64,000 nt of DNA, taken from contig JABLXD010000007.1 in the NCBI GenBank assembly GCA_013178285.1, positions 18,093 through 82,092 on the forward strand. The letters run 5' to 3'. The notes beneath the pieces are model-generated. The model did not search any database. It saw only the letters and a program-made list of their open reading frames with translations, and had not been told where the DNA came from. The position numbers and the translations under genes are program-made. Positions 13,385-58,226 of the stretch are shown here, piece by piece. The first letter of the stretch is position 1, and each line of letters begins with the position of its first letter. This DNA is from Methanofastidiosum sp. Its GTDB lineage: Archaea > Methanobacteriota_B > Thermococci > Methanofastidiosales > Methanofastidiosaceae.

Positions 13385-15138
13385 TTGGCATTAAGAGAAA
13401 TGACACCATATAGAAGATTTATGTCAGCTATGGCCGGTGGTCGTGTTGACAGAACACCTACTATAGTACTTTCAAACTTTTGTAAAGAATTAATGGCTTC
13501 AACAAACGTTACCTGGCCAGCATGTCAGACTGATTCAAAGGTTATGGCACAGTTCCAGGCAGGCAGATATGAAGTTTGGGGATTAGATTTACTTATATCC
13601 CACAATGATTTAGTATCTGAATCAACTATGCTTGGTGCAGATATTGATTTAGGAACTGATTTAAGACATCCATCTGTATTAAAACATGTTCTTGAAAACA
13701 CTGACCCAACAAAATACAACTTGCCAAAAGACGTTATATCCAAGGGAAGAAATCCAATTGTTGAAGGTTCAACTAAGATTCTAGTCGAAAAATATGAAAA
13801 ACTTGTTCCTGTTTTTAGAACTGTTACAGGTCCAATGACCATTGCAGGTCACCTTTGGGGCGTAGACAGAATATTAATGTGGTCAAAACAAGAAGAAAAG
13901 AAATTTGAAGCTTGTCTTGATATTTGTACTGATCTTTGTATTGAAATCTTAGGAACTCTGTTGATTCAAGTGGCGCAGATGGATTTTACATGCCTGATCC
14001 AACAGCTTCAGGAGACTTACTTGATCCAAAGGATTACCAGTACTTCCTTGAGCCAAGATATAAGAGAATGACAAAGGAATTAAAAGATACTATGTCTATC
14101 TTACATATCTGTGGTGACACAAGAGGTTACATGGACAGGATACCACACTCTGGATTTGATGCATTCTCATTCGAGGCACCTGGTACCTCAGTTAAAGAAG
14201 CAGTTATGGGTCTTGGAGACAGGGTTACACTCGTCGGAAGTTTGGAAACAATCCCAGTCGTCATGATGGGTACACCAGAATATGTTTACACACAATCACT
14301 TAGAGATATTGCAGATGGAGTAGATATTCTTTCTCCAGCATGCGGTACACCACCAATGACTCCAAATGCAAACATAAGGGCCATGGTAGAAGCTTGTGGG
14401 CCAAAGAAAGTAAAGAGAAAAGTCGTTGCGCTAAGCAAAGAAGAGATTATAAAGAAGTACACACCAGCAAAACCTGAATTTGCAGAAATTACAAAAGCAG
14501 TCATGATAGGTGACGCAGATAAAGCTGAAAAGCTCGTAGTAGCTGCACTCGAAAAAGGATTAAAGCCAATTGATTTAGTAGAGGAAGCATTGTTACCTGG
14601 TGCAATTGGTGTAGCAGAAATGTACGATGGTGGATACGCATTCGTTCCTGAAATATTACTCGCTGCAAACGCAATGAAGAAAGGTATCAGCCACTGCCAG
14701 AGCGCAATGGGAGATGTCAAGCCAAAAGGTAAGATTATTATGCACGTTGCATTCGGTGACGTTCACGCCATTGGAAAAGACATTGTAAAGTCAATCTTGA
14801 TTGCAAAGGGATACCAAGTTACTGATCTAGGGGCAAGTGTTCCATGGGATAAAGTAATTGAAGCTGCAAAGAAAGAAAAACCTGATGTAGTATCCGGTAC
14901 TGCTTTAATGACAACAACAAGAACTGCATTCCCCAAGGTAGCCGAACTTATGAAGAAGGAAGGATTAGAGGTCCCATTCATAGTTGCCGGTGGAGCAGTC
15001 GACCCAGCTTACGCAGAGACAATGGACTATGCAATATACTGTAAAGGACCAGGAGATGCTGAGCCTGTCTTTGAAGGTATAAGAAAAGGCAAGAAGTGGC
15101 AACAAATCAGAGAAGAAGAACACAAGAAATACAAATAA
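13385..15138 (+). CDS. MtaA/MtsA-family (URO-D fold) methyltransferase fused to a C-terminal corrinoid (B12)-binding domain; interrupted by a 1-nt frameshift near 13945-13955
   Basis: The N-terminus MTPYRRFMSAMAGGRVDRTP matches the methylcobamide:CoM methyltransferase family, and the region CIEIL/NSVDSSGADGFYMPDPTASGDLL aligns with MtaA (SIEYAKAQIEAGADAVMIADPVASPDL). The C-terminal half has B12-binding_2 plus B12-binding motifs (GDVHAIGKDIVKSILIAKGYQVTDLGASVP). It starts at TTG preceded by GGAGG. ORFs 13385-14071 (frame 2) and 13990-15138 (frame 1) overlap. Confidence 0.8.
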
Positions 15139-16464: not shown

Positions 16465-16505
16465 AAATACTTTAAGAAATGGATAGTTTTAAAGGTTTTG
16501 AAATG

Positions 16506-16661
16506 ATTACTTTATAATTTTACTAATGTTATAACCGGTTTTAATATAACCTGAAAGAAGGGAGTTTCCATTATATTACAACCTTTATATTGGATAAACT
16601 TCTTTCCCTATTTTCCCTAATTTTTTCCATATCCTTAAATATATGGAAAAGATGAAATTAA
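16506..16661 (+). repeat. Intergenic module A, copy 1 (156 bp), promoter-like, with hairpin and TATA-embedded palindrome
   Basis: This copy is near-identical to 56501-56656 (same length, no indels; differences are concentrated in 16550-16570). It contains TTTATAAT, the stem TAATATAA/TTATATTA, and TTCCATAT-N8-ATATGGAA overlapping TTAAATATAT. Confidence 0.85.
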
Positions 16662-16690
16662 TCAAATTGAATTTAAGTAAGAGAGATTAA

Positions 16691-17068
16691 ATGACATTAG
16701 ACAATAACTTAATTGTTGTATTTTTATTACTTAGCTTAGTCGAACTCTTAACTTTTTTTTCTATTTTAAATAGTCTAAGATATCGTAAATATGGCAAATT
16801 GATTCGAATTGATGCGAATATTCCAGAAACTCATTATACTGGAAATGGTGTTCTAGCCTACCTAATTCTAATCTTTATGTTTGTTAATCTCTTTGCTATA
16901 TTTCTTTTGAAATTTTGGGGTTTCGTATTTTCAGTTCTATGGATAACCTTTAGCAGTATTTTCCTCTACTGGTACTGGCACACCAAGGAAGATCCTCTAA
17001 ATCGTTTCCACTACGAGCAGAAGGTCTGGGAGGATCCAAGGGACAAGAAGAAAAAGGAGACCAACTAA
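16691..17068 (+). CDS. Hypothetical small membrane protein (125 aa, three predicted TM helices)
   Basis: The ORF has hydrophobic segments and a Lys-rich C-terminus. Its stop overlaps the start of the next ORF (TAAATG). Confidence 0.5.
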   Translation: MTLDNNLIVVFLLLSLVELLTFFSILNSLRYRKYGKLIRIDANIPETHYTGNGVLAYLILIFMFVNLFAIFLLKFWGFVFSVLWITFSSIFLYWYWHTKEDPLNRFHYEQKVWEDPRDKKKKETN

Positions 17069-17752
17069 ATGACATCCGACTTCAAACCCGGCAAAGCATA
17101 CCTGATAGAAGGCAAGGGCATAGAACAGGTGAAGAGTGAGATCAAGGATTGGCTTACTGAAAAAGGGATAGAAGTAAAAGAAGAAGATGAAAATTCACTT
17201 ATAGCGTATAATTATTTTTATAGTTTCAAGATTAGCCAGATATGGATTAGTCTAAAATTGGAAAATCACATTTCTGAAACTGTTATCACTTTTGATGAAA
17301 GAGTATATAGGTTTCAGATGTGGTTGATTGTTGGGGGCCAGTACTATTACCTCGACGAAATAAGAAAAGATATGGTAAGGTATCTCAAAGGAAAAGATGA
17401 AATTGGCATCAATACAATTGGCAGATATTGCGCTTTATCATACTTGCCCATGTTGCCTGCCTTAATATTTTGGGGCGTTCCATTCTTTTCGGGAATGTTT
17501 TCCATCGTGCTTGAAGAGAGTATCTGGAATTTATTTATGAAATTATTTCTAATTTTTATCTTAATTGGTAATTTATGCTCTATGTATCTAGAATTTGTCC
17601 CTCTTAGAAAAAAATTAGACGCTCTTGCAAATTCATATGAACACTATATTGAAAAATATTCGGGAGAAGAGTATAAGGTGGACATATTTCCACTTATTGG
17701 ATATTTTTTTATCTGTCTAATATTCTTCTTTTTTATAATTTACCACATATAA
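17069..17752 (+). CDS. Hypothetical membrane protein (227 aa; about 110 aa soluble N-domain followed by TM helices)
   Basis: It is translationally coupled to the upstream ORF, and the pair is bracketed by repeat modules A1 and B1. Confidence 0.5.
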   Translation: MTSDFKPGKAYLIEGKGIEQVKSEIKDWLTEKGIEVKEEDENSLIAYNYFYSFKISQIWISLKLENHISETVITFDERVYRFQMWLIVGGQYYYLDEIRKDMVRYLKGKDEIGINTIGRYCALSYLPMLPALIFWGVPFFSGMFSIVLEESIWNLFMKLFLIFILIGNLCSMYLEFVPLRKKLDALANSYEHYIEKYSGEEYKVDIFPLIGYFFICLIFFFFIIYHI

Positions 17753-17760
17753 GACGAAAT

Positions 17761-17797
17761 TATAGTTTATTAAGTTAAACTTTATAATTTTACTAAT
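17761..17797 (+). repeat. Intergenic module B, copy 1 (TATAGTTTATTAAGTTAAACTTTATAATTTTACTAAT)
   Basis: This copy shares the 22-mer ACTTTATAATTTTACTAAT with module A and matches 58062-58100 almost exactly. It is followed by the hairpin ATTACAgggcttTGTAAT. Confidence 0.7.
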
Positions 17798-17890
17798 ATT
17801 ACAGGGCTTTGTAATATAATGAAGAATTCAATGAACTGTTTTATCTAAGAAAGGAATTAGTATATAAAAATAAATAAAATAAAATTTATT

Positions 17891-18790
17891 TTATGGAACA
17901 ACTAGTTGTATCCTTATTGTGTCAAATGTTCCATTTGTAGAGTAAGCTACCATAGAGATATTATAAGTTCCTGATGGAACGTTTGTACCTACTGTGAATG
18001 TTGCGCTGTATGTACCTATATTATGTGCCTTTATTGTCTGTGTAGCTGGAGTTAATTCTACTGTGACTCCATCTGGGAGCCCAATGAATCTTACTCTTGC
18101 ATCCTTTTGTGTAAAGAATCCTCTGTTCTCAACTTGTATCATTGTCTGCTGTACACCAGGCAAAACATTGAAAGCTGAGATGATTTTACCATCCTTTATT
18201 ATGGTTGCGCCACCGCTAACTGCAAATCCTTCAATGTCGACTTTTGGGTATAAAGCCTGCTTTCCTTTACATTCACAGATTGAGTAAAGTTTCCAGGAAT
18301 AGGTAATAGGACAATCTGAATTCTCGCTGTTTACAACTTGAATACTTTCAAATTCTTTTATTACACTTCCTTGTATAAATTCATTCTCACTAAAAGGAAA
18401 CCTAATATCCACACCATCTACAACTCCGCACTCTGGGTCAAATTGAGGTGAGCTAATCCCGTGTTCTTCTCCTTTATAGTAAGCTGTAATCCAAAAAATT
18501 GCTAGAGGGGGGTCTCCTGTACATTCTATGCATTCTTGTGTTTGCCCTTTTATTTGGAGATAGTAATAACAATCTTCAAGAATAAAAGAAGGTACACTAT
18601 ATGATCTGTTTTCGCCAGGTTGAAGAGTTGTGTTAAATGACCAAACTAGTTTTTCATTATAGCACTCAAAAGGCACCCCTTCAACAAACATATCGTCCAT
18701 TGGATTCTGACCAAGTACTGTTGAAAGGCTACTAATCGCCAATAAAAATATACCAATTAAAGCAATGATTCCTTTTTTCATGTTTACCAC
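17891..18790 (-). CDS. Hypothetical secreted/anchored Cys-rich protein with a C-terminal Ig-like (CARDB-like) domain
   Basis: It has an N-terminal signal/TM segment (MKKGIIALIGIFLLAISSLSTVLGQ) and 9 Cys. The C-terminus has a beta-sandwich-like pattern. Confidence 0.45.
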   Translation of the reverse strand: MVNMKKGIIALIGIFLLAISSLSTVLGQNPMDDMFVEGVPFECYNEKLVWSFNTTLQPGENRSYSVPSFILEDCYYYLQIKGQTQECIECTGDPPLAIFWITAYYKGEEHGISSPQFDPECGVVDGVDIRFPFSENEFIQGSVIKEFESIQVVNSENSDCPITYSWKLYSICECKGKQALYPKVDIEGFAVSGGATIIKDGKIISAFNVLPGVQQTMIQVENRGFFTQKDARVRFIGLPDGVTVELTPATQTIKAHNIGTYSATFTVGTNVPSGTYNISMVAYSTNGTFDTIRIQLVVP

Positions 18791-18887
18791 CTTTAATATT
18801 CATTTAAATGAAATCTTAATATTATATAAAAGTTTTGGATTTTACCGAGGGATTATTTGAAAGGGCCAATTTAAATATCCATTTATA

Positions 18888-18930
18888 TTTTATTAAGTTA
18901 AATTGAACTATTTTACTAAAATTACAAGCC
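18888..18930 (+). repeat. Intergenic module B-like, copy 3 (degenerate)
   Basis: TTTATTAAGTTAAAttgaacTATTTTACTAAaATTACAAGCC combines the B core with the ATTACAAGCC segment seen in module A2. Confidence 0.4.
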
Positions 18931-24704: not shown

Positions 24705-25460
24705 TCATAACCATTTTTTGAACCAATCTAAAGTAAGTCCTATAAGTTCAGACTCATGCTCTTCTTTTGAAAACATGTGGTCTGACCCTTTTATGACAAT
24801 AAAATTCTTTGGATCATTTGCATTTTCATATATCTCTTGTGAATTAACAATAGAAACTAGTTCATCGTTTTCAGGATGGATTACAAGAATTGGTGCTTTT
24901 ATTCTTTGTACCAATTTAGTTGCATCTTGTTTTTTTAAATCTAGATAAAATCCATAGTTTATCCTTATCTTTCCTCTTTTCCAAGAGGGAAATGTTATGT
25001 AACCATCGTTCTTCCATTGAGCTTCCTTTTCCTTAAAGAGCGTATCCCACTCAAGCTTTGCTGGAGCTGCTGCTGAGACTAATGCCTTAATTCGATTATC
25101 ATTTGCAGCTGCGTTTATTGCAACTAGTCCTCCAAGTGAATGCCCGATTATACCTATTTTTGAGATACCTTTCTCCTCAAGAAAATCAATTGCGGAGATA
25201 ATATCATTGGTCTGATTAGTTACACTCATCTCCTCACATGTACCTTCAGATTCACCTATGCAATCACTAAAGTCAAATCTAAGTGCGCATATTCCGTTAT
25301 CTGAGAGTGTTTTTGCGAGATTAAAGTAATGTTTAACTTCTTTGAATCCAGTGAAGTGACTTGAAATTATGGCACATCTATCCCCTTCACCGTCAAGTAT
25401 GCCAACTATCTTAAGCCCTCTTGAATTAAAAAAAGATACTTTCTGCACAGTCATGAACAA
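24705..25460 (-). CDS. Alpha/beta hydrolase (esterase / dienelactone-hydrolase-like)
   Basis: It has the nucleophile elbow GHSLGG and a later HPENDELV motif (Asp/His of the triad). Confidence 0.7.
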   Translation of the reverse strand: MFMTVQKVSFFNSRGLKIVGILDGEGDRCAIISSHFTGFKEVKHYFNLAKTLSDNGICALRFDFSDCIGESEGTCEEMSVTNQTNDIISAIDFLEEKGISKIGIIGHSLGGLVAINAAANDNRIKALVSAAAPAKLEWDTLFKEKEAQWKNDGYITFPSWKRGKIRINYGFYLDLKKQDATKLVQRIKAPILVIHPENDELVSIVNSQEIYENANDPKNFIVIKGSDHMFSKEEHESELIGLTLDWFKKWL

Positions 25461-25538
25461 GAATATGTAAATAAAAATAAAAAGATAATGTAATTCTTAC
25501 TTGACCCCAAACTATTTATAGAAAGAAGTCTTATTGTA

Positions 25539-56376: not shown

Positions 56377-56500
56377 GAATTACTATTAATAAATCGACAA
56401 TCAATAAAAAGATTTTGATTCTGATAGAGATGCAAAGCTTATAATCTTATTTTTTTGAAGTAAATATAATAAGAAAAAACGTATAAATTATAGGGAAAAA

Positions 56501-56656
56501 ATTACTTTATAATTTTACTAATGTTATAACCGGTTGTAATATAATCCAAAACTAGCAAACTTGTCTTATATTACAAGCCTTATATTGGATAAACTTCTTT
56601 CCCTATTTTCCCTAATTTTTTCCATATCCTTAAATATATGGAAACGATGAAATTAA
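56501..56656 (+). repeat. Intergenic module A, copy 2 (156 bp)
   Basis: It has the same length as copy 1 and is collinear with it. It is identical except for a few flank substitutions and the 21 nt hairpin loop (56545-56565). Confidence 0.85.
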
Positions 56657-58066
56657 ATGAATAGAATGCGAACTGAAGCCGATTTATCGCGCCCACCATT
56701 AATAATATTGATATCCCTAGTACTGGGAATTATCTTAACTGGAATTACAAAGACATACTATGGGCAACCTAAATCCATGAATATTATTTACATTTCAATA
56801 TTGCTTTATATTTTAATCATCGTAACTATTGCCTTGGCTTTATACAAAGGGCTAATAACAGAGATGAGGCACAATATATTTTCAAGGAAGAAAGCATTTG
56901 TCAATGATGAAGAAGAGCCTGAGGATAGTATATATCTAGAAAATATGGAGGGCGGTAAGGATTGCTGTCCTTATTGTAATAAAGAAATATTTGACTACTG
57001 GGATATCTGTCTTTATTGTGGGAATAGTTTGAAGTATAAGAGCAGGTTCAGATTTCTAAACACTAGAAATTTATTTTCAGCAAATAAAGCATCAAGCGAT
57101 TACGAAGAAGATCCTGAAGATAGCATAGATTCAGACGATATGGATGATGATAAGGATTACTGCCCCTACTGTAATGAGGAAATATATGGCAGTTGGGACA
57201 TTTGTCTGCATTGTGGAAAAAATCTAGAATTAAAGAAAGGCATAATTTACAAATTCAAGAATCCCATTTCTATTTTATCTATACTCCTGATAGCTTTTAT
57301 GATAATATGGGCCATAACACTATCCTTTGCTCCAAATGCTGAAGAATATACTATGGAAGGAAATTCATTATACAATCAAGGAAAATACGACGAGGCTCTA
57401 GAGAAGTTTGATAAGGCTTTAGAGATAAATCCTAATTTTGCTTATGCATGGGAAGGCAAGGGTCTTGTACTTCATAATAAAGGAAAATACGACGAGGCTA
57501 TTGAATGTTATGATAGAGCTATTGCCATAAATCCTAATTTTGCTCAGGTTTGGTATAACAAAGGACTTGCATTTGAAGAGCAGAGTAATTATATTAAATC
57601 TATAGAATGCTATGATAAGGCAATTTCAATAGATTTAAACTATATTTACGCGTGGGAAGGAAAGGGAATAGTATTTTATATACAAGGTAATTATCCCCTA
57701 GCGATCGAATGCTATGATAAGGCAATTGCCATAAATCCAAACTATGCATCCGCATGGGTTAACAAAGGGGCTGCTTTTTTAATACAAGGAAAATACGATG
57801 AAGCTATTGAATGCTTTGACAAAGCGATTGTTATAGATCCTAATTTTGCTTATGCTTGGTGTAACAAGGGACTTATACTTGGAGCTCAAGGCAAATACGA
57901 TGAAGCTATTAAATACTATGATAGAGCTATTTTAATCAATCCAAATTTTGCTTTTGCATGGTATAACAAAGGACTTGCACTTAAAAAACAAGGTTTGTAT
58001 TTTGAATCCATTATATGTTTTCAAAAGGCAAAAGAACTTGGTTACAAAGAATCGGCCAATCTATAG
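56657..58066 (+). CDS. Membrane protein with two tandem zinc-ribbon/acidic modules and about 7 C-terminal TPR repeats
   Basis: It has an N-terminal TM helix, then the duplicated module EEEPEDSIY..CCPYCNKEIFDYWDICLYCGNSL and EEDPEDSID..YCPYCNEEIYGSWDICLHCGKNL, a second TM helix, and repeated 34-aa units (W-GKG--L---G-Y-EAIECYDKAI-INPN-A-AW). Confidence 0.65.
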   Translation: MNRMRTEADLSRPPLIILISLVLGIILTGITKTYYGQPKSMNIIYISILLYILIIVTIALALYKGLITEMRHNIFSRKKAFVNDEEEPEDSIYLENMEGGKDCCPYCNKEIFDYWDICLYCGNSLKYKSRFRFLNTRNLFSANKASSDYEEDPEDSIDSDDMDDDKDYCPYCNEEIYGSWDICLHCGKNLELKKGIIYKFKNPISILSILLIAFMIIWAITLSFAPNAEEYTMEGNSLYNQGKYDEALEKFDKALEINPNFAYAWEGKGLVLHNKGKYDEAIECYDRAIAINPNFAQVWYNKGLAFEEQSNYIKSIECYDKAISIDLNYIYAWEGKGIVFYIQGNYPLAIECYDKAIAINPNYASAWVNKGAAFLIQGKYDEAIECFDKAIVIDPNFAYAWCNKGLILGAQGKYDEAIKYYDRAILINPNFAFAWYNKGLALKKQGLYFESIICFQKAKELGYKESANL

Positions 58067-58100
58067 TTTATTAAGTTAAACTTAATAATTTTACTAAGTT
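58062..58100 (+). repeat. Intergenic module B, copy 2
   Basis: TATAGTTTATTAAGTTAAACTTAATAATTTTACTAAGTT overlaps the TAG stop of the TPR gene and matches 17761-17797. Confidence 0.7.
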
Positions 58101-58226
58101 TATTATCCTAGCATAATTTTTTATCTAATTAAGGAAATTATACTAAGACTAATCCAGACCCTATACCCAAAAATTAATCAGTATTTAGATAGATTTTAAA
58201 TATATCTTAAACCTCTTTTATTATAG

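Follow-up and report, generated by a model that had tools for sequence, protein, structure and literature searches.

Three copies of a short repeat (the B modules) and the openings of two copies of a longer repeat (module A) in the 64-kb window analyzed here, meaning the whole stretch of DNA with its approximately 60 genes, are most likely junctions formed by site-specific recombination of mobile cassettes that lack a recombinase gene of their own, as judged by comparison with empty and filled loci in related genomes. The repeat is most likely part of a system that shuffles genes and not an ordinary promoter. Methanofastidiosa, methanogens found in anaerobic digesters, have yet to be cultured, and to our knowledge almost nothing is known about gene exchange in their genomes. 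A defined site of about 29 bp with standardized cassette ends would make accessory genes countable and trackable in metagenomes, would allow tests of whether viruses transport cassettes between hosts, and could serve as a short engineering site once the enzyme is found.

All three B copies and both module A openings were present where the original prediction had placed them. B1, composed of TTATAGTTTATTAAGTTAA followed by ACTTTATAATTTTACTAA, spans 17760 to 17796 and lies 8 nt past the stop codon of ORF2 (17750 to 17752), B2 (58061 to 58097) overlaps the stop codon of the TPR gene (58064 to 58066), and a degenerate copy, B3, spans 18883 to 18919. The two copies of module A, A1 (16500 to 16672) and A2 (56495 to 56667), are 87% identical over 173 nt, including 65 nt at 100% identity, and open with the same core as the B copies, which places related direct repeats on both sides of the cargo, as had been claimed. 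Within the window, the invariant 10-mer ATTTTACTAA had 5 matches, compared to 0.85 expected, all on the plus strand and confined to the three B copies and two module A openings; none of 100 shuffles matched this count. The 3′ motif TTTATTAAGTTAAA matched 3 times (0.36 expected), and the shared 20-mer matched 4 times when up to 3 mismatches were allowed (0.09 expected), rather than standing before most genes. With only five places of occurrence among approximately 60 genes, the motif is not a general promoter consensus.

Evidence for cassette movement came from loci that are empty in one genome and filled in another. Gene order around RsgA is kept for more than 10 kb between the window and five related loci (L045, from GCA_001587695.1, and L047 to L050), in which the gap between the RsgA and glyoxalase genes measures 71 nt and contains one site. 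The left flank of this empty site aligns to the window left of A1 and the right flank to the window right of B3, so that the window carries a 2,393-bp insertion (16527 to 18919), made up of cassette 1 (16527 to 17796) and cassette 2 (17797 to 18919) and divided by B1. At the locus flanked by ABC ATPase and radical SAM genes, L006 has just one site and no cassette; the window has the TPR cassette there (56522 to 58097), and cassettes of 0.6 kb and 1.27 kb occupy it in L001 and L018, respectively. A third locus, between J-domain and methyltransferase genes, has a single site in L014 and differing cargos in L003, L005, L007, and L011, and a fourth, flanked by peroxiredoxin and OsmC genes, is occupied in L020. 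When empty and filled loci are aligned, the breakpoints lie exactly inside the motif. A single metagenome contig (L017) contains an array with intact junctions, in which a cassette related to cassette 1, another of 2.67 kb with four genes (HxlR regulator, cupin, hydrolase, and flavodoxin), and an A2-type (TPR-type) cassette start occur together; the units corresponding to the L017 neighbors stand 40 kb apart in the window. The synteny comparison proposed in the original prediction thus revealed relatives that differ in cassette occupancy at the same loci, and its suggestion that direct repeats around variable cargo reflect cassette exchange is supported by the empty sites, the swapped cargos, and the same cassette types elsewhere. 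Neither a circular cassette junction nor polymorphism within a single population was observed. Because all comparisons are between species or samples, they do not resolve the temporal order of excision, insertion, and loss.

Searching one genome per species with ACTTWATAATTTTACTAAKNTTA gave 14 loci, 9 of them in Methanofastidiosum or related "Thermococci" metagenome-assembled genomes, and window proteins were 79 to 98% identical to homologs named Candidatus Methanofastidiosum. The possibility that the cassettes are compositionally foreign was ruled out, as their G+C content (31.5 to 33.4%) is near the window value of 33.5%.

Each site consists of an 11-bp AT-rich arm, the invariant asymmetric center TTACTAA, and an inverted 11-bp arm. 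Out of 35 candidate sites tabulated, 28 were accepted as genuine; TTACTAA was constant in all 28 while the 11 nt on either side varied, with the caveat that most sites were located using window-derived patterns, which biases the apparent conservation of the query parts. The empty site of the RsgA locus, GCTTTATAATT-TTACTAA-AATTATTAACC, is symmetric at 25 of 29 positions about the C of TTACTAA, and the empty site of the ABC ATPase locus (L006) reads AACTTAATAA-TT-TTACTAAGTT. Host-type left arms (ACTTWATAATT) were located at attL, while cassette-type left arms (ACTGAATGATT and ATTGAACTATT), always preceded by TTATAGTTTATTAAGTTAA, occurred at attR and at cassette-cassette junctions of unrelated loci. 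This segregation of arms, with the host arm 5′ and the cassette arm 3′, indicates that exchange was reciprocal and took place at or beside TTACTAA. A target-site duplication would yield identical flanking copies, and is excluded because these copies are systematically unlike each other. A MITE- or MIC-type transposon was rejected in the same comparison, since the ends are not mutually inverted repeats and a left host arm stands against a right cassette arm. An exchange point to the left of core position 5, proposed from a single-nucleotide polymorphism among A2, B2, and L006, was dropped when further junction pairs were compared.

An arm, an asymmetric central overlap of 6 to 8 bp, and an inverted arm make up the standard simple site of tyrosine recombinases (Xer/dif, Cre/lox, and lambda Int), and strand exchange by these enzymes needs an identical center in both partners. 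The empty site has this layout, with TTACTAA between the two arms, and a tyrosine recombinase acting with a 7-bp overlap is probably responsible for the exchange. The layout of the dif site has been described (PMC2958812).

Two other ways of moving DNA between such repeats fit the sites poorly. Short regulatory repeats might exchange cassettes by homologous recombination or gene conversion, without a recombinase of their own, and could make use of the repeated cassette ends and of the long, partly identical A1 and A2 copies, but identity between cassette and target on the right side is only about 10 to 19 bp, resolution always falls within the same 7 to 10 bp, orientation is strictly kept, and the target shows dyad symmetry, as protein-binding sites do; we give this explanation hardly any weight. 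Equally little credence attaches to nonautonomous IS200/IS605-type (PATE-like) elements, which would transpose in single-stranded form, integrate 3′ of TTAC, and have hairpins close to their ends. TTAC does lie inside the invariant center, and an imperfect palindrome is found near each end (3′, TTATTAAGTT-A-AACTTWATAA; 5′, the inverted repeat). However, the empty site is a 29-bp near-palindrome, filled sites share 10 to 19 nt on both sides of TTAC that would be superfluous for the IS200/IS605 mechanism, no Y1 (HUH) transposase was found in the ORF lists and Pfam scans of the annotated loci, and the sole transposase found was of the DDE type and interrupts a cassette.

The mechanism that we consider most likely is conservative site-specific recombination. 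Attachment sites would bracket cassettes of 0.6 to 2.7 kb that have no recombinase gene, and each cassette would possess one composite site that is split upon integration into a 3′ part (TTATAGTTTATTAAGTTAA plus the left arm) and a 5′ part (TGTTATA, 6 nt, TTGTAATATAA, usually an inverted-repeat or hairpin element, and the promoter module). Insertion would occur by exchange at TTACTAA with a similar single intergenic site; successive insertions would build arrays, and the reverse reaction would leave a single site again. B1 would then be where the two cassettes in the glyoxalase-RsgA gap meet, B3 would be the right-hand junction of this pair, and B2 that of the TPR cassette. We infer that cassettes pass through a circular form, that the overlap is 7 bp, and what kind of recombinase is involved; the enzyme would act in trans, with a Xer-like 405-amino-acid integrase or the host XerA as candidates. 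The features assigned under this scheme are listed in Table 1.

Table 1. Features of the putative cassettes and their junctions in the window
Feature	Coordinates	Strand	Details
attL, two-cassette insertion	16509..16537	+	host arm ACTTTATAATT 16509-16519, TTACTAA 16520-16526, cassette arm TGTTATAACCG 16527-16537
Type A 5′ end, cassette 1	16538..16602	+	GTTTTAATATAA 16538-16549 / TTATATTACAAC 16571-16582, 21-nt loop, then TTATATTGGATAAAC
Promoter/operator-like module, cassette 1	16603..16650	+	TTTCCCTATTTTCCCTA, then TTTTTCCATAT-CCTTAAAT-ATATGGAAAAG; identical at 56598-56645
Cassette 1 cargo	16691..17752	+	two membrane-protein ORFs, 125 aa and 227 aa
B1, cassette 1/2 junction	17760..17807	+	TTATAGTTTATTAAGTTAA 17760-17778, ACTTTATAATT 17779-17789, TTACTAA 17790-17796, TATTACAGGGC 17797-17807
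Type C 5′ end, cassette 2	17808..17875	+	TTTGTAATATAA, about 36 nt ending GTTTTATCTAAGAAAGG, degenerate second direct copy
Cassette 2 cargo	17891..18790	-	secreted Cys-rich protein, 299 aa
B3, attR	18883..18930	+	TTATATTTTATTAAGTTAA 18883-18901, ATTGAACTATT 18902-18912, TTACTAA 18913-18919, host arm AATTACAAGCC 18920-18930
attL, TPR cassette	56504..56532	+	arm ACTTTATAATT, TTACTAA 56515-56521, arm TGTTATAACCG
Type A 5′ end and module, TPR cassette	56533..56645	+	inverted repeat 56533-56544 / 56566-56577; module 56598-56645
Cassette 3 cargo	56657..58066	+	469-aa membrane protein, double zinc ribbon, seven TPR repeats
B2, attR of TPR cassette	58061..58108	+	CTATAGTTTATTAAGTTAA 58061-58079, ACTTAATAATT 58080-58090, TTACTAA 58091-58097, host arm GTTTATTATCC 58098-58108

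Junctions in the window could be matched to specific loci elsewhere. To the left of the center of the first attL, the window flank matches the empty site of L045 and L047, and to the right of B3 it matches the L047 empty site from the center onward, with the B3 host arm overlapping the RsgA stop codon. The left flank of the TPR-cassette attL is common to L001, L006, and L018, and the arm, center, and right flank of B2 equal the single site of the empty L006 locus, ACTTAATAATTTTACTAAGTTTATT. The architecture of the B1 junction recurs in L007, L017, L019, L027, and L042. B3, which had been described as a degenerate copy upstream of the secreted Cys-rich gene, is present as such a copy, but its position is actually that of the right-hand junction of the Cys-rich gene's own cassette.

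Cassette 5′ ends in general consist of the right arm TGTTATA, 6 variable nt, and TTGTAATATAA. In type A starts (A1, A2, L001, L017, L018, and L019), an inverted copy follows after a 21-nt loop, succeeded by TTATATTGGATAAAC and the promoter-like module, and this inverted-repeat element is kept in seven cassette starts with differing cargo. Type C starts, including the one at B1, instead have a direct second copy about 36 nt farther on and cargo on the opposite strand; homologous starts were found in L002, L003, L004, L007, L011, L020, L027, and L042, each before minus-strand cargo. The original prediction had noted a hairpin, ATTACA-gggctt-TGTAAT, after B1. This palindrome is indeed present (17798 to 17815), but it is the start of the next cassette and is homologous to the TGTTATA-N6-TTGTAATATAA beginning of module A.

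Cargo is diverse and occurs in either orientation relative to the site. No Pfam family was found for the two ORFs of cassette 1 or for the Cys-rich protein of cassette 2. Homologs of the cassette 1 cargo lie within the L017 array, homologs of its ORF1 lie downstream of integrase genes in L023 and L027, and other type C cassettes carry unrelated cargo, such as beta-propeller proteins. In the TPR gene, the repeat region (57377 to 58031) comprises five tandem 102-nt units that are 64 to 74% identical, and the N-terminal half encodes two CxxC...CxxC zinc-ribbon motifs between transmembrane segments. The leaders of both type A units end in a short ORF starting ATGAAATTAA, at 16653 to 16692 in unit 1 (encoding MKLIKLNLSKRD and a stop) and at 56648 to 56668 in unit 2 (encoding MKLNE and a stop), located just before or overlapping the cargo start. 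The second ATG of the TPR gene (56669) may be its real, possibly leaderless, start.

A key question was whether the repeat is simply a promoter or operator, with BRE/TATA elements and a regulator site controlling a regulon, in which case differences in gene content would be unrelated to the motif. Several features are compatible with this: the arm ACTTTATAATT is TATA-like and the AT-rich arms resemble archaeal TATA boxes, a reverse-oriented site lies about 50 nt before the glyoxalase start codon, and a genuine promoter-like module travels with the cassettes. On the other side, the invariant part is the non-TATA center TTACTAA, and at many sites the TATA-like arm gives way to ACTGAATGATT, a sequence that does not resemble TATA. 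Copies also stand at gene 3′ ends facing convergent genes, the breakpoints between empty and filled loci coincide with the motif, and five copies for about 60 genes are few. A regulon explanation is thus very improbable, and the BRE/TATA interpretation given to the repeat in the original prediction is not supported. The same prediction had suggested that B1 could drive a short antisense RNA into the convergent gene; this is not supported either, as the TATA-like arm varies between sites and cargo occurs in either orientation relative to the site. At the glyoxalase locus, the site could double as a promoter for that gene on the other strand.

The module TTTCCCTATTTTCCCTA...TTTTTCCATAT-CCTTAAAT-ATATGGAAAAG is a better candidate promoter than the site, and its copy at 16603 to 16650 is likely the promoter of the cassette 1 cargo. 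Conservation in the module is opposite to that in the site: the arms are conserved, the TATA-like center is variable, and the module always lies just before cargo. It also precedes cargo or accessory genes beside integrase genes and in virus-like contigs. This constant position just before cassette cargo or virus accessory genes suggests a common regulator. The module is built from two direct TTTCCCTA repeats followed by an 11-8-11 inverted repeat with a TATA-like center, and further examples lie in L023 (3150 to 3200 and 4480 to 4510), L027 (11343 to 11386), L042 (10516 to 10560), L044 (7031 to 7075), and L038 (1680 to 1725).

Other functions considered for the type A 5′ end were not supported. 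When folded as RNA, the inverted repeat gave z-scores of −0.4 to −1.5, and a compensatory change was found in 1 of 15 consensus pairs; by these values the element is not unusually stable as RNA and shows almost no covariation, and we claim no RNA structure for it. A variable guide-like loop in module A was rejected because most loops of cassette starts are mutually related, and a second degenerate site within module A (TTATATTGGATAAAC... compared to the 3′ end and core) was not significant, at 67% identity over 42 nt (E = 0.28). A Rfam scan of the whole window at the gathering score had zero matches, and no tRNA genes were detected when the window and 11 loci were scanned for them.

No recombinase was found in the window. 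A regular expression for recombinase motifs had no match in the window or the first 26 loci, a pattern that missed the L023 integrase revealed by the ORF list. In L023, L027, and L042, a PF00589 protein (E = 4e−25) of approximately 405 amino acids with a C-terminal zinc ribbon is encoded beside arrays. The order following the integrase gene, on the same strand, is the promoter module, cargo that includes relatives of window ORF1 and the TPR gene, a cassette 3′ end with its site, and a type C cassette; the first cassette after each integrase gene is without a left-hand site. This integrase family is common in Methanofastidiosum, with 449 homologs. Its best NCBIfam match was NF040815 at 122 bits, compared to a cutoff of 220, and is therefore below the XerA_Arch equivalog level, and it also scored below the integron-integrase cutoffs (TIGR02249, 69.5 bits for a cutoff of 265; NF011946, 41 bits for a cutoff of 435). 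By these curated cutoffs, the predicted protein is Xer-like and is neither XerA nor an integron integrase.

This protein is linked to the cassette sites by adjacency in three contigs, and whether it acts there is doubtful. Among annotated proteins, it is closest to the integrase of Geoglobus acetivorans pleomorphic virus 1 (BK065156.1), at 43.5% identity over 95% of the length, and the record of this virus starts just upstream of int, at a GC-rich end. The boundary of the Methanofastidiosum integrase module is sharp, about 115 nt upstream of int at GC-rich AGTGCGGG..., and related proviruses meet host or virus DNA at this upstream boundary (L034 compared to L035). The host junction of pleomorphic-virus-type elements is thus GC-rich and upstream of int, whereas the cassette site is AT-rich and downstream of int. 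The GC-rich boundary and the likeness to the Geoglobus virus imply that the cognate attachment site of the integrase is probably not the AT-rich cassette site. The idea that AGTGCGGGAGCTGGG upstream of int is the 3′ fragment of a tRNA was set aside as a guess, with zero tRNA genes in the loci.

Viruses are nevertheless linked to the cassettes in several contigs. In L023 and L024, a virus-like genome that has methylase and terminase-like genes contains the site in its accessory region, which suggests that cassettes reside in viruses too; scans of viral contigs for the site and for the integrase found neither. Distant relatives of the integrase in Methanofastidiosum head proviruses with methylase, terminase-like, and tube genes. 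The sample SRR6186653, which contains a contig identical to part of the window (L026), also holds a member of the integrase family on a Logan contig (L044), where a 420-amino-acid Xer-like integrase is encoded between sodium:solute symporter (SSF) and helicase genes, near Fpg, and is followed by the promoter module and McrBC-type restriction genes. The neighborhood of Fpg and integrase genes occurs in two contigs (L044 and L027). A 90- to 95-amino-acid ORF (MA.YVTRWIKTDPIEGVNRI...) with no Pfam family lies to the right of the site on the opposite strand, its end being about 15 nt away, in four virus-linked contigs (L016, 1254 to 1526; L022, 235 to 507; L023, 3737 to 4024; and L024, counted by its matching right-flank sequence); it could encode a recombination directionality factor or merely be the first virus gene.

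These links raise the alternative that the repeats are scars of decayed proviruses or larger integrated elements, with leftover att junctions around units that are no longer, or never were, independently mobile. The module and the ORF1 and TPR families are indeed found again beside integrase genes and in virus-like contigs that have terminase-like and methylase genes, and the site abuts virus genes in L023 and L024. We consider such scars improbable, since the units are compact and keep both ends at four or more chromosomal loci although their cargo is unrelated, junctions within tandem arrays are intact, one locus holds different single cassettes in different genomes, and independent decay would not produce the same two ends again and again. 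In addition, the related proviruses L034 and L035 join the host elsewhere, upstream of int.

Cassettes of integrons offer a close parallel in organization, and integrons have been described from archaea (Ghaly et al. 2022; PMC9668308). Like integron cassettes, including those of CALINs, the units described here are small, mostly with 1 to 4 genes and one site each, and lack a recombinase gene. Both have diverse cargo mostly of unknown function, form tandem arrays with a single site orientation, and can either adjoin a tyrosine recombinase gene or occur elsewhere as integrase-less clusters. The Methanofastidiosum site differs from integron sites in being a conserved double-strand-type 11-7-11 sequence instead of a structured attC. 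An attC site has imperfect inverted repeats, R″(RYYYAAC)-L″...L′-R′(GTTRRRY), at the 3′ end of the cassette. A motif search for this pattern found GTTAAAC or GTTAAAT at 17774, 18897, and 58075, yet RYYYAAC was not found within 190 nt upstream of any of them. Host sequence extends up to the arm left of TTACTAA with cassette sequence after it, which places the exchange 12 to 18 nt downstream of GTTAAAC and not at G/TT. Unlike integrons, Methanofastidiosum has short arrays (1 to 3 cassettes) dispersed among a number of intergenic sites, and a promoter-like module is part of each type A cassette. The adjacent integrase (L023, L027, and L042) is co-oriented with the cassettes, whereas IntI is divergent from the array and comes with attI and Pc. 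Cargo can be on either strand. Three features that define integrons are accordingly not seen here: the attC architecture, the G/TT exchange point, and a divergent IntI-type integrase. The system is integron-like in organization, and no description of such cassettes in Methanofastidiosa was found in the literature searched; the text of PMC9668308 does not mention the lineage.

Two classes of bacterial elements share other properties. Cis-mobilizable elements (CIMEs), and the tandem accretion seen at ICE or prophage att sites in Streptococcus, involve integrase-less, att-flanked units that can be used by an element with a related integrase; known CIMEs are bacterial, occupy one att site (often a gene 3′ end), and are deletion derivatives of ICEs. 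The Methanofastidiosum cassettes resemble them in being integrase-less and att-flanked and in forming tandem arrays by successive integration, and differ in having several chromosomal sites, many small cargos, and standardized ends. No autonomous element using the same cassette site was identified. In pdif modules of Acinetobacter plasmids, site orientation alternates. Xer-exploiting elements (IMEX) and pdif modules are similarly recombinase-less, with short palindromic arm-spacer-arm sites, and a host Xer-type enzyme could serve in trans, but each Methanofastidiosum genome has many sites, which always flank the modules in direct orientation. The geometry of the site resembles that of dif (11-6-11), with a center of 7 bp. 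The dif site of Pyrococcus abyssi (ATTGGATATAA-TCGGCC-TTATATCTAAA) is unlike the cassette site (archaeal XerA/dif; PMC2958812), and a search of the analyzed loci for dif-like 11-(5-8)-11 sites with ATATAA/TTATAT arms found none of relevance.

A tentative extension of these comparisons, which we hold somewhat less likely than its opposite, is that Methanofastidiosum has a second cassette system independent of integrons. Cassettes consisting of a 5′ inverted repeat, their own regulated promoter, cargo, and a 3′ half-site would move among many dispersed chromosomal 11-7-11 sites and the accessory regions of resident viruses by means of a Xer-like recombinase acting in trans at the overlap TTACTAA, and the 5′ element would be an accessory recombination element or a small RNA, not a promoter. 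Apart from this extension, the cassettes described here show that an organization like that of integrons can arise where a plain double-strand site (arm, overlap, arm) takes the place of a folded attC, which is relevant to the evolution of cassette systems.

Several other observations were made in the compared regions. In L019, a DDE-type transposase gene (933 to 1934) directly follows a truncated type A 5′ end, and an insertion sequence therefore appears to have landed in the cassette leader. Gene content between the 2′-5′ RNA ligase and dodecin genes also varies, with an alpha/beta hydrolase in the window (24708 to 25496), an AhpC-type peroxiredoxin in L045 (1251 to 1736), and nothing between them in L047 (1276 to 1367); a copy of the att site was looked for at this variable spot and not found. 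A methyltransferase:corrinoid-protein fusion in the window (13385 to 15138) needs a change of reading frame near 13950, where L045 has a single 584-amino-acid ORF; possible causes are a frameshift, decay to a pseudogene, or a fault in the assembly.
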